DNA of 20,865 bases from a virus, in UHGV virus genome UHGV-1781188. One strand, given 5' to 3'. Position 1 is the first letter of the stretch. Every line of letters starts with the position of its first letter. Below are positions 1,149 to 20,837 of this stretch, one piece after another. Made by a program: the position numbers and the translations under genes. The notes under the pieces are model-generated. The model was not told the origin of the DNA. It was given only the letters and a program-made list of their open reading frames with translations, and ran no database searches.

Positions 1149-1166
1149 TTTCTTAACTAAACTATC

Positions 1167-1199
1167 AGGGGCTTTAAAAGGCCCCTTTCTTTTTGTCTG
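1167..1199 (+). terminator. rho-independent terminator
   Basis: GGGGCTTTT / AAAAGGCCCC near-perfect hairpin followed by tttctttttgtc. Confidence 0.6.
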
Positions 1200-1802
1200 T
1201 ATTTCTCCTACCACAAACGGCCCAGCCTGGCAAGTGGAATAATTGACTAGCCATCAATCCAACACACTGTACAAACATACATGTAAAATAACTATTGCAT
1301 AATTTTTCATTGTGTGGTAGCAGGTCCATTTTTACCCGCTTTTCCTTCCAAAACTGCATGCAATTCCGCTATTGCACAAAATTTAACCTGATGCACAATA
1401 TCTCTTTCTTGTCAACAACTAAAAATCTTTATAAGTCATACACTTACATAACTACAAAAGCGTGTTCTACGTGAAAAATCGAGTATAACTATAGCCGCCA
1501 GATCTCAGAATTTACGTACGCTCACCATTCTATAGCCAGCTAAGTATTTATTCCGACCATAGAATAACGGAATAGTCAATATCTGCATAAAATAATTATT
1601 CGTGTAAACTGCATAACATAAATCAGCTCAGGTGTCAACATTTTTCGTAAACAGTCCGAAATTATCACGATGAGTTATCATAAACAGAGAAATCTTTAGT
1701 CGTCTAATGTTTACTGTACATTACTATACTGACTGGAATCATTAGATGACTAAGAGAAAGATAAGAAATAATTAATAGTGTAATTATTTTACCTGTAACA
1801 AT

Positions 1803-1980
1803 AAGGCAACTATGCAAACGAATGGCATGGCGCGACGGAGTCGCGACATAATATAAAAGCAGTAACCATCACCCCCGTGATAGTTTGTCTGCAATCTATT
1901 AATCAGATCATAGTTGCCTTGTATTTAGTTAATCATGACATAACAAGCAAGGCAACTATAGATCTTCTAATAGTTGCCCT
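1803..1980. repeat. 11-bp iteron AAGGCAACTAT, four copies in alternating orientation
   Basis: direct at 1803-1813 and 1949-1959; reverse-complement ATAGTTGCCTT at 1910-1920 and ATAGTTGCCCT at 1970-1980 (1 mismatch). Confidence 0.6.
1812..1831. repeat. 20-bp direct repeat, copy 1 (ATGCAAACGAATGGCATGGC)
   Basis: identical 20-mer recurs at 2073-2092. Confidence 0.7.
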
Positions 1981-1996
1981 GCTTTTATATTATGTC
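1845..1996. repeat. 18-bp perfect inverted repeat pair flanking the iteron cluster
   Basis: GACATAATATAAAAGCAG at 1845-1862 and its exact reverse complement CTGCTTTTATATTATGTC at 1979-1996. Confidence 0.7.
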
Positions 1997-2013
1997 ATAG
2001 AAACACCCGAAGG

Positions 2014-2030
2014 GGTGACCAAAGGTCACC
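2014..2030. repeat. perfect palindrome GGTGACC-AAA-GGTCACC
   Basis: 7-bp arms, 3-bp spacer; flanked by cccgaagggg. Confidence 0.6.
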
Positions 2031-2072
2031 TGGCATAGCCAGCGAAAGATTATTAACTTGCTAATCGTTATC

Positions 2073-2092
2073 ATGCAAACGAATGGCATGGC
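2073..2092. repeat. 20-bp direct repeat, copy 2 (ATGCAAACGAATGGCATGGC)
   Basis: identical to 1812-1831; followed by TTATAAT. Confidence 0.7.
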
Positions 2093-2183
2093 TTATAATT
2101 TTTGAGCAAATAGTCTATACGTGAACAGTGAGGCATGCAATAGTAACAATTGTTATTGTATCCAGTGTGTTGAGTATGCCCAG

Positions 2184-2221
2184 TGTGTCACTATTATGTC
2201 ATATTATGTCACAGTATGTCA
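2184..2221. repeat. four helically phased short repeats (TGTGTCA, then TATGTCA x3 at 10-bp period)
   Basis: TGTGTCA 2184-2190; TATGTCA at 2195, 2205, 2215; TGACATA (reverse) also at 1936-1942 and TATGTCA at 1991-1997. Confidence 0.6.
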
Positions 2222-3536
2222 GACAAGTTTTCCTCCTCTTTGTCAAGTGCTGCATGAAAAATTTACAAACTGGTATGGTAGCATTTTTGCGGCCCTGTTT
2301 ACATTCAGTAATGTATGTATAATCCTTGTTGTGTGGGCGTTTAGACGTCTAGACGGTCAGAAGTCCGCAGGTCAATAACTAATCTATCGGCTGCTAACTA
2401 TATCCCACACAAATAGTAAGAAATATAATTGTTATGTGTGTAAACAGTAACTCATGTTATCAATCCCTGTATGGATCGCCAGTGGTGCGCATAATGGGTA
2501 TTATGTTAAATTGCCCGTAATGATAACAGTTCTCACAATGATAGGTATTCTCATTCACCCCCACAAGATAGGTTGCAAATGTTGTGCCACTGTGTGAACG
2601 GCCTCACCTATTAATTTGCCTCACTGCCTCGATATTTGAGAATTGTTATAAGAATGAGAAGTATTCCCATTTCGTCCGCCTGGCAGCACTCCAGTCGCTA
2701 CCGGCTCCTGACAGGGAGGCACTCCTGTCGGTCAGGTCAAAATCATGGTATAACTGGACCTGTTCAGATATTTCTGGCTGGCTCTTCAGGTCTGTGTGGG
2801 AAAAGCCAACCTCTCAGGCGGGGCAGGGGGGTCATGACGGGAAAATTGCAGGTCAATTAAAAAATTTACGTGGTGTATGAAGCGCTCTTCAGGTAAGGCA
2901 TGTATTATGGGATGAAACCCTCTTCAGGCAATGATATTTGTGGGTGTGATATTTGCTGGAAAGCCAGATATGACGGGACTCCCGGCTGGGCAGGGGTAGT
3001 ACAGACAGGGGAAATATGGAGGATGTAGTTGGGTGAGTTGATCAGACAGGTTGGGTATAGATATGTTACAAGTATGTTAAATATGGAGGGTGAATATCTG
3101 TAGGATTTATGTGTAAAATCAAAGACTTAAGTGGTGTTGTGGTATTTTCTATAAATAATTCAAGTTTAATAGGTAATATTTGTCTCTGTCCGCTTTGTGT
3201 GGTAAGCAAATTCAGATGGTGTTGGTTTACAAGTGTATACATAATATACAAATTAAAGATACAAGAAACCCCCCTCCCCCTTCGGCTACCATTCACCTTT
3301 TCCTCTGACTGGTACTTAAACACTTATTCAGACTCTTCAGGTTATCACCCATATATCATATGGCAGTGACTGGTGTCCTCCGGCCCCTCTTTCGTCACCC
3401 GTCCGCTTCGCCATGCTAATGCCATAGCCAATGGTTCGGTTGTTCACCCTGTTCACTCAGGTGTATCTCCATACCCCTTCAAACCGAAGAGAACAGAAAA
3501 CCCGAATTACTCGGTAAAAGAAAAGAGAAGAACTTA

Positions 3537-3564
3537 ATTTTATCAGGATAGGCAAGAATGTCAA
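3537..3564 (-). promoter_or_regulatory. sigma70-like promoter directed into the non-coding region
   Basis: minus strand TTGACA (3564-3559), 16-bp spacer, TAAAAT (3542-3537); no convincing CDS downstream. Confidence 0.4.
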
Positions 3565-3691
3565 GGCATGACTGCTCACTAAACAAGCAAACAGTCATGT
3601 GTGGGAGGTAAGTGATTGTGGTGGTAGGAAATTTAGTTGAAAGATGTGTTATAGGTGCTTCCAGCACTTTAGCCGGGCAGCTAATTGTGTG

Positions 3692-19541: not shown

Positions 19542-20837
19542 TCAGCAACCACAACTTCCGTAGTGCTTAACCCGTTCTATAACTTCCGCTTGCTTACCTT
19601 TATTGTAAGGACGGGAGTTTGGACTAGACAGGTACCCGGATACACGTCTGATCACACTGATCGTTCCCTCTTCATGGTTTCCACACTCTGGGCATACAAA
19701 GCCTTTAGCTGTTGCACTAAACTCACCAGAGAAACCACACTTGAGACATTTATCCACAGGTTGGTTAATACCAAAATACATAATGTGTTTATACCCGAAG
19801 TCAACAAGAGCCTCTAAAGCATCCAGGTTGTTTTTCAGATTTGGTGTCTCTACGTATCCGATGTTGCCACCAGAGGAGATCATAGCAAAACCTTCTTCAT
19901 ACTTCCACTTATCAAAAGGAGAGCTATTGATCCATACTGGCTGATGGAAACTGTTGGTGAGATATTCATGCTCGTGCTTCAACACTTCAGGATATTCACG
20001 ATCCAGACAGGTTGCAGCTTTATAGCATAGGCTCTCAGAAGGGGTGCCGTACAAGCTAAATGCTAGTCTACTTTCCTTCTTGTATCGCTCACAAGCATCT
20101 CTCATGTGCTGAAGGATTCCAAGAGCTAAAGCCTTGTCACCCTCTCTGCCCAAAATCTGACAGGTTTCATACACACCAATATACCCAATACTGATGGAAG
20201 CGTACCCGTCATAGAAGAGTTTATCAATACTCTCTTCAGGATCCAGGCGAGCAAGAGCGCCTTCACACCACATGATAGGGTTCTGCCCTGCCTTGGTGCC
20301 TTTCAGACGGTTAACCCTTACAAGGTGAGCCTCGTATGCAAGATCCAGATACTCGTCAAGAACGGCAAAGAAATCAACACCTTCCGTCTTAGCTTTTGCC
20401 GCAATCATTGGCAGGTTAAGACTAACAACACCCAAGTTGAATCTGCCGAGGTATTTCTCCTCGCCTGTTTCCAAGTCATTGTATTTGCTAAGAAAACTCC
20501 GGCAACCCATGCTCGTTACTTTACCATCTGTCGAGCCTGTCACTTTACGATTTAGTGGAACAGAAACAAAGTCAGGATAAATCCGCTCTGCAGAGCATTC
20601 CAGAGCTAATCGTTTCAAATCATAGTTAGGATCTCCAGGGTTCATGTTGACACCCTCTTCTAGGAAGAACAGCACTTTAGGGAACACAGGTGTGATACGT
20701 TCTTCACCAAGACCCATTTTGTGGACTTTCAGGTAGTTTTTGGTAATCATTCTACCAAAGACCGAGGTATCCAGTCCTAAACTCAATGTGATGAATGGAG
20801 TCTGCTGTCTCCTCCCTGTGTTTCCACAGGGCCAGAC
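19542..20837 (-). CDS. nrdD: anaerobic ribonucleoside-triphosphate reductase, C-terminal ~430 aa (5' end lost at contig edge)
   Basis: glycyl-radical motif RRVSGY near the C-terminus; C-terminal Cys cluster CLKC...CPEC; ITPVFPKV...EEGVN...DPNYD...LALEC parallels T4/E. coli NrdD; the frame stays open from 20786 to the adapter junction. Confidence 0.9.
   Translation of the reverse strand, partial: VWPCGNTGRRQQTPFITLSLGLDTSVFGRMITKNYLKVHKMGLGEERITPVFPKVLFFLEEGVNMNPGDPNYDLKRLALECSAERIYPDFVSVPLNRKVTGSTDGKVTSMGCRSFLSKYNDLETGEEKYLGRFNLGVVSLNLPMIAAKAKTEGVDFFAVLDEYLDLAYEAHLVRVNRLKGTKAGQNPIMWCEGALARLDPEESIDKLFYDGYASISIGYIGVYETCQILGREGDKALALGILQHMRDACERYKKESRLAFSLYGTPSESLCYKAATCLDREYPEVLKHEHEYLTNSFHQPVWINSSPFDKWKYEEGFAMISSGGNIGYVETPNLKNNLDALEALVDFGYKHIMYFGINQPVDKCLKCGFSGEFSATAKGFVCPECGNHEEGTISVIRRVSGYLSSPNSRPYNKGKQAEVIERVKHYGSCGC

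Follow-up and report, generated by a model that had tools for sequence, protein, structure and literature searches.

A helically phased TRTGTCA repeat array abuts the direct terminal repeat boundary of Vequintavirus genomes and is a candidate part of their packaging signal

The stretch of viral DNA analyzed here, UHGV virus genome UHGV-1781188 (20,865 nucleotides, hereafter the window), carries four direct units of 10-11 bp with the core TRTGTCA, which form a short array immediately to the left of position 2222. The array is real and unique, and it abuts exactly the boundary of the direct terminal repeat (DTR) mapped in related phages; the unit at the boundary is invariant, the register of 10-11 bp is kept, and the copy number varies from genome to genome. 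On the strength of the sequence comparisons we assume, with a probability of roughly 0.55, that it is a terminus-adjacent short-repeat array belonging to the signal for terminase recognition and cleavage; that a protein binds the array, which protein this is and that it has any role in cleavage is what we infer from this arrangement. The window represents a Vequintavirus (rV5-like myovirus), its positions 1500-3000 matching 121 phage records, nearly all of them at 90-95% identity. The Vequintavirus DTR has already been published and the non-coding gap in which it lies has been recorded, while the array and its exact abutment to the repeat boundary were not found described in the literature searched. 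The array is of a kind already known, in which repeats of short length or sites for terminase adjoin a phage genome end, and does not represent a new type of system.

Exact searches of the window located TATGTCA at 1936 (- strand), 1991 (+ strand), 2195, 2205 and 2215, and TGTGTCA at 2184. The units of the array start 11, 10 and 10 bp apart and all lie on the + strand, so that the phased run described in an earlier note on this DNA, as well as the further copies reported there in both orientations, were reproduced. The 10-mer TATTATGTCA is identical in units 2 and 3. The motif total is at the chance level: the window has TATGTCA five times where 3.8 copies would be expected, and in the whole genome of the close relative PDX (138,427 bp) 19 copies were counted against about 23 expected from base composition (TRTGTCA occurs there 43 times); thus, the genome-wide enrichment that the earlier note had proposed to look for does not exist. 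The arrangement of the copies is a different matter. All five window copies of TATGTCA are packed into 286 bp, and phased runs of at least three TRTGTCA at 10-11 bp spacing appeared in none of 3000 simulated first-order Markov sequences of the window length, whereas the window has four such units in a row. In PDX the homologous array is the sole phased run genome-wide on both strands, and the 300-bp interval richest in copies (five) also falls at the array locus. The protein-binding idea was to be abandoned, according to the earlier note, if the motif proved equally frequent elsewhere without phasing; its frequency is indeed ordinary, but the phased cluster is unique. By eye, the units contain no A-tracts, and phased TA steps are present. 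Being unique, helically phased and confined to the same strand, the array does look like a protein-binding array, and to this extent the earlier idea is reasonable, but the binders it named (replication initiators, nucleoid proteins, phage regulators) gained no support.

The array ends to the base at the DTR boundary and therefore points to DNA packaging and end formation. In phage Gotham (MT682716.1) a 459-bp repeat_region is annotated at both ends (1-459 and 136567-137025), and the alignment of these ends to the window places the repeat at 2222-2680 with TATGTCA^GACAAG at its edge (here and below the caret marks the boundary); the right-end copy of Gotham begins with GACAAGTTTT, one base past the last TATGTCA, i.e., at window position 2222. 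In the record of HdK5 (MK373780.1) both ends consist of an exact repeat of 459 bp, whose boundaries coincide with those in Gotham (the other strand reads ...AAAACTTGTC^TGACATAATG, that is ...CTTGTC^, and the repeat starts with GGCGGACG). In EdH4 the repeat was found at 1-459 and in a second place, and the first base of an unrelated record, OX460980.1, lies exactly at GACAAG. Terminal redundancies of 458 bp were previously reported for HdK5 and EdH4 (Korf 2019, PMC6563267). The record of bov11CS3 starts at the base identical to that of Gotham and HdK5, and this start was excluded as independent evidence; the record is a later version (135,883 vs 135,960 nt) of a genome called permuted in the original paper. 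The 459 bp of the window are 93-98% identical to 120 records.

The boundary is also visible in the conservation profile, computed in 40-bp bins from the alignment of 18 Vequintavirus loci. Column conservation jumps from about 0.66 to 0.99 at 2222: to the left of it (2102-2221) the values are 0.61-0.70, with 17-79 inserted columns per bin in the outer flanks, while inside 2222-2661 they amount to 0.93-0.99, indels being nearly absent. Conservation declines to 0.89 in the bin that includes the far boundary, and at 2702-2741 it is 0.63 with 51 inserted columns, the fall being located within about 20-60 bp beyond 2680. Approximately ten conserved bases past 2680 are followed by an indel-rich stretch and, further out, by a TGT(A/C)GGTCAGGTC element. 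No TGTCA array was found at the far boundary: from 2681 onward there are motifs of other kinds, CTCTTCAGG among them, and the TGT(A/C)GGTCA-like element occurs once. The DTR behaves as a sharply bounded island, either homogenized or strongly constrained, and within its hypervariable left flank the array occupies the innermost position; the conservation step at the DTR edges is an evolutionary signal independent of the sequencing method.

The DTR and the array lie in a gap of about 2.5 kb free of open reading frames (ORFs), with + strand genes on its left and - strand genes on its right, so that transcription converges on the gap. In the same convergent gap of KPP-1, a phage of the genus Mydovirus, a DTR of 514 bp was determined from twofold coverage and PhageTerm analysis, and the packaging was assigned to the 'T7 type' (PMC9862379). 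One boundary of the KPP-1 repeat aligns exactly to 2680^2681 of the window and the other to 2222/2223, and the two phages have in common the TTGTCAAG...AAATTTACAAA block inside the repeat. In one more phage, Schickermooser (Phapecoctavirus), the repeat is 328 bp long. Since two exact-repeat records, one annotated, one record starting at the boundary, the cross-genus PhageTerm result and the conservation step agree, genome ends fixed at the positions corresponding to 2221^2222 and 2680^2681 appear to be the better-supported reading for Vequintavirus.

Comparison of 21 relatives revealed which part of the array is kept. All 21 genomes have an RTGTCA whose last base directly adjoins the boundary, and TGTCA^GACAAGTTTT (TGTCA^GACAAG) is invariant, while the 100 bp before the boundary contain anywhere from one (bov11CS3, FV3) to six (A141) exact RTGTCA copies. 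The copies follow one another at 10 bp (21 cases) or 11 bp (10 cases), and spacings of about 20 bp occur where a middle unit has decayed to TGTCT, GGTCA, TGTGC or TGTAT. The locus of bov11CS3 equals that of the window less three units. As bov11CS3 and FV3, both of them sequenced phage isolates, retain a single exact copy, a cooperative complex on several sites is apparently not essential, and the cooperative binding to several phased sites suggested in the earlier note is weakened accordingly.

The following sequence of events could connect the array with end formation. In the concatemer the TRTGTCA array would follow the left unique DNA and precede a single copy of the DTR, behind which the right unique DNA would begin, and the end-forming cut would occur at TGTCA^GACAAG, right after the last unit. 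Because a cut at 2221^2222 would create a genome end that starts with the repeat, the array would find itself on the side not packaged with that end. The units may serve as binding sites, all on one DNA face, for a protein recognizing the end, for which the small terminase subunit is the most probable candidate. This protein would be located on the non-packaged side of the cut in the manner of SPP1 gp1 at pacL and would place the nuclease of the large subunit for cutting at the edge of the array. The indispensable site would then be made up of the boundary-proximal unit and the first DTR bases, and the extra units would be redundant or affinity-raising copies gained and lost by slippage. The mechanistic model for this proposal is the pac region of SPP1 (pacL-pacC-pacR), where the binding of the small terminase is known, whereas for the window it is proposed. 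The small terminase gp1 of SPP1 binds pacL, on the non-encapsidated side, and pacR, and positions the non-specific large-subunit nuclease between them (PMC6316719). SPP1 differs in that it packages by the headful mode from a single pac cut, has no exact DTR, and its pac overlaps a terminase gene, while the site in the window is situated in a 2.5-kb non-coding gap.

A more specific proposal, which we consider tentative and rather improbable as a whole, is that the array acts as a copy-number-variable loading platform for the small terminase (pacL-like, on the non-packaged side) fixing the DTR start to the base, that the gain and loss of units tune packaging efficiency, and that the same logic explains the arrays of the SRL/SRR type in T7-like phages. 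If true, it would provide the first defined packaging/cleavage signal for rV5-like myoviruses and would help to settle the conflict between 'headful' and 'DTR' in the literature. The rV5-like phages are among the most often isolated myoviruses of E. coli, and are used or considered in phage therapy and biocontrol. The abutment itself gives a concrete and cheaply testable candidate for a packaging/cleavage site in Vequintavirus. Furthermore, TGTCA^GACAAGTTTT and GTCCGCC^TGGCAG may be used as landmarks for orienting approximately 120 genome records, the majority of them permuted arbitrarily.

The variation in copy number can also be read differently, namely that only the boundary-proximal unit matters, as the cleavage site, and that the upstream units are a neutral minisatellite produced by slippage or unequal recombination. 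Genomes sharing about 95% identity in the adjacent DTR have anywhere from one to six exact copies, the identity of the 10-mers in units 2 and 3 is as expected after a recent duplication, and many upstream units have decayed while the boundary unit is always perfect; the three-unit difference between bov11CS3 and the window and the lack of the array in KPP-1 fit this explanation as well. Mildly at odds with it, the 10-11-bp register persists across decayed units (about 20-bp spacing at a degenerate unit), a second repeat family, GTRAAYAGT, was amplified in the same flank, and two ATGTCA copies located 225-285 bp upstream are conserved; in addition, T7 retains comparable arrays on both sides of its repeat. 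We regard a purely neutral origin of the upstream units as unlikely, though as an explanation to be reckoned with.

Several facts weigh against assigning the array to the packaging signal. It is present on one side of the DTR only, unlike in T7, and to our knowledge the function of the T7 SRL/SRR arrays is itself unproven. The natural one-unit variants bov11CS3 and FV3 indicate that multiple units are probably dispensable, and KPP-1 has, instead of the array, just one AGTATGTA-like unit, which lies outside the boundary at a distance of about 5 bp. The physical ends were taken from the records of relatives rather than from reads of this phage. A 'fixed' label would be unexpected for T4-like phages, given T4. 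Such a label is assigned to them in the table of the same study in which PhageTerm labelled four bovine Vequintaviruses 'circular permutated' (PMC8407724), the latter result being another point against. Headful packaging was inferred in a 2026 study (PMC13211470), and the genomes of PhiTE and PVP-SE1, rV5-like phages of other genera, were reported to be circularly permuted on the basis of restriction and Bal-31 analysis (PMC3475682).

The closest parallel to the array is found in T7. Both possess a 7-bp motif repeated in one orientation with a fixed period just outside a short exact terminal repeat at the concatemer junction of a virulent phage, and the array of the window would be a second, independent case of T7-style short repeats by a terminal repeat. 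In the T7 sequence, CCTAAAG-like heptamers (at most one mismatch) were found at 175, 188, 201, 213, 226, 239 ... 332, spanning 175-338 with a 13-bp period; this set follows the 160-bp repeat and a second one precedes the right repeat, with 23 and 17 matches against 3.8 and 2.9 expected, respectively. We take them to be the arrays SRL and SRR (Dunn and Studier, 1983), whose pattern was thus re-checked in the sequence. The differences concern the motif and the period (TRTGTCA at 10-11 bp in the window, CCTAAAG at 13 bp in T7), the number of copies (four in the window and one to six in its relatives, about 12 in T7), the position (the array of the window touches the boundary, that of T7 begins 15 bp away) and the sides occupied (one in the window, both in T7); besides, the phage of the window, a myovirus of 137 kb, has no RNA polymerase of its own. 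As for the T7 proteins, gp18 is said to recognize PacB and gp19 to cut at PacC (PMC9860248).

Arrays of short sites are known from other systems too, and we compared them with that of the window. Several short terminase-recognition repeats next to a cleavage site exist as the R-sites of lambda cosB and the pac hexamers of P1; these are cohesive-end and headful systems with other motifs and spacing and with host factors (IHF, Dam methylation). Direct repeats of 10-11 bp are bound cooperatively by ribbon-helix-helix proteins in parC of plasmid R1 and similar loci, with a filament or ring formed on one DNA face. Arrays of the parC type illustrate how phased repeats with this period can function, but their role is in partition rather than in packaging; no gene resembling parR was seen close to the array of the window, and there is no sequence similarity.

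Clustered direct repeats in a non-coding region are shared with iteron origins (lambda ori, P1 oriR, plasmid iterons), and the array might accordingly be a replication element, composed either of iteron-like initiator sites or of start sites for a T7 gp4-like primase-helicase priming from the DTR edge into the genome. The sequence 5'-GTGTC-3', one of those recognized by the T7 primase, is present in unit 1, the 2.5-kb gap is an obvious home for cis-acting sites, in T7 the promoter phiOL, which serves replication, is located just past the left array, and the phasing argument of the earlier note would apply to initiator sites as well. Iterons are, however, usually 17-22 bp long, exceeding the 10-11-bp units of the array, and come together with DnaA boxes, an AT-rich element for unwinding and the gene of a cognate initiator; none of these was found by the array. 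The search for DnaA boxes gave nothing over some 900 bp around the array, the closest TTWTNCACA match being that at 3110, and no marked AT-rich block adjoins it (GC content 0.37-0.40). No initiator-like neighbor or any other Pfam match was obtained for the six ORFs flanking the gap, which may nevertheless include small initiators of an unfamiliar type. A gp4-type primase-helicase and a PolA-type polymerase are encoded by rV5, which favors the replication element; in the same phage, the turns of GC skew coincide with changes of transcription direction (PMC3606486). In the window, likewise, the GC-skew turn at the array locus coincides with the change of transcription direction, and so does not speak for an origin. 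Considering also that the copy number (1-6) is not conserved and that GTC-containing 5-mers are common genome-wide, as is TRTGTCA in PDX with its 43 copies, we find a replication function improbable.

Least probable, and by our estimate very unlikely, is that the array is a promoter or an operator. Read along the - strand, the units give TGACATAAT, with a -35-like TGACA and a -10-like CATAAT, which could make up a promoter for the host RNA polymerase or repressor sites; the promoter scan did report CTGACA-N18-CATAAT with an extended TG (10/12 matches) on the - strand at 2222-2193. Promoter-like matches in the gap are nevertheless at the chance level (11 vs 9.9 expected), an equivalent hexamer pair was not found by eye in the arrays of the Gotham and HdK5 types, and no gene lies downstream on the - strand. 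A structured RNA was considered and rejected as well: the whole window gave no Rfam hit at the gathering threshold, and the fold energy of 2120-2300 is ordinary (z = -0.39), both of which also count against regulatory sites. Single-strand folding of 2120-2300 revealed no hairpin signal at the boundary, except for a small TGTC-A-GACA inverted repeat.

The ORFs 2121-2378 and 2128-2322 (+ strand), which overlap the array, were rejected as coding, the frame being broken in relatives by the 10-/11-bp unit and by larger indels, and curated annotations (navn, JohannBauhin) leave this region empty. In the rV5 paper the corresponding region (104013-106618) is described as having 'no observable ORFs' and as 'non-coding', and no function is given (PMC3606486). 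The coordinates of the array and of the surrounding elements are summarized in Table 1.

Table 1. Elements at and around the left DTR boundary in the window (a caret marks a boundary)
Feature	Position	Strand	Remarks
Repeat array, four direct units of 10-11 bp	2181-2221	+	core TRTGTCA
Unit 1	2181-2190	+	CAGTGTGTCA
Unit 2	2191-2201	+	CTATTATGTCA
Unit 3	2202-2211	+	TATTATGTCA
Unit 4, boundary-proximal	2212-2221	+	CAGTATGTCA
DTR equivalent, 459 bp	2222-2680		single copy in the window, as in a concatemer junction or a circularized assembly
Boundary site TGTCA^GACA	2217-2225		4+4 inverted repeat with one central base; putative cut between 2221 and 2222
Far boundary GTCCGCC^TGGCAGCACT	2674-2690		putative cut between 2680 and 2681
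TTGTCAAG	2240-2247	+	19-26 bp inside the DTR; conserved between Vequintavirus and Mydovirus KPP-1 (alignment); another TGTCA core
Distal inverted TATGTCA	1936-1942	-	about 280 bp from the boundary, flanked by inverted AAGGCAACTAT repeats
Distal direct TATGTCA	1991-1997	+	directly after a 15-bp-stem hairpin (1945-1984) and a T-run; conserved in Gotham
ORF-free gap, about 2.5 kb	1149-3691		navn and JohannBauhin annotations; contains the DTR and motif families found mainly or only there

The inferred cuts adjoin or hit the centers of odd inverted repeats, TGTC-A-GACA (after the A) and GCC-T-GGC (2678-2684, before the T). The KPP-1 boundaries display no such symmetry by eye, so that the symmetry at the cuts may be due to chance. 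Inside the DTR, the repeat_region annotated in navn is an 18-bp tandem repeat of two copies (2518-2553, TAATGATAACAGTTCTCA and CAATGATAGGTATTCTCA), distinct from the TGTCA array.

The GTRAAYAGT family is represented in the window by four copies against 0.75 expected (including 1647-1655, 2121-2129 and 2440-2448). Directly upstream of the TGTCA array, its copies are repeated in tandem about every 15 bp in Murica (L031), rV5 (L032), A141 (L037) and the IMG/VR loci L022 and L023; the window contains only remnants of this upstream array, and one copy lies inside the DTR. The exact search of IMG/VR with a 24-mer from the DTR start yielded two contigs only. A similar search with three phased TATGTCA yielded 17 loci (L003-L019), which belong to unrelated contigs without flanking similarity and were thus rejected as homologs; they are perfect tandem TATGTCA units of 10-11 bp, some of them in giant-virus bins, and the unit of L011 is identical to TATTATGTCA.

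The left part of the gap holds further repeats. The 11-mer AAGGCAACTAT is found in four copies of alternating orientation (1803-1813, 1910-1920, 1949-1959, 1970-1980), the last pair of which makes up the 15-bp-stem hairpin at 1945-1984, followed by TTTTAT and resembling a terminator on the + strand; in PDX every exact copy of the 11-mer lies in this part of the gap. The arms of a perfect inverted repeat of 18 nt, at 1845-1862 and 1979-1996, bracket the AAGGCAACTAT region, which has a conservation of 0.95. The same value was obtained for the region surrounding the TATGTCA copy at 1936, of which the ATGTCA core is retained in Gotham. A perfect 20-nt direct repeat, ATGCAAACGAATGGCATGGC, occurs at 1812-1831 and 2073-2092, the copies being 261 bp apart; it is conserved in Gotham and confined to this locus in PDX.

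The motif CTCTTCAGG is present six times in the window against 0.18 expected, five copies being located to the right of the DTR (positions listed: 2782, 2885, 2920, 3333 and 3979, + strand), and some copies adjoin G-rich GGC(G/T)GGGCAGGGG blocks. In PDX four of its eight genome-wide copies lie in the junction region, and KPP-1 has CCTCTTCAGG inside the repeat. The octamer GGGCAGGG at 2821-2828 and 2988-2995 matches the FtsK KOPS consensus GGGNAGGG. A link to FtsK, prompted by the label 'DNA translocase FtsK' of the navn homolog of ORF 319-582, was rejected: it has no Pfam support, and the motif is weakly enriched (4 vs 1.5 expected).

About 18 records named 'Campylobacter phage' (host Campylobacter jejuni; e.g., MG065655.1 and the UNVERIFIED MG065672.1) are 90-98% identical in this region to the Vequintaviruses of E. 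coli, which looks like mislabelling or contamination rather than true host range. The largest ORF of the window (19542-20786, - strand) matches annotated NrdD, the large subunit of the class III anaerobic ribonucleotide reductase, with homologs in approximately 2900 phage records.

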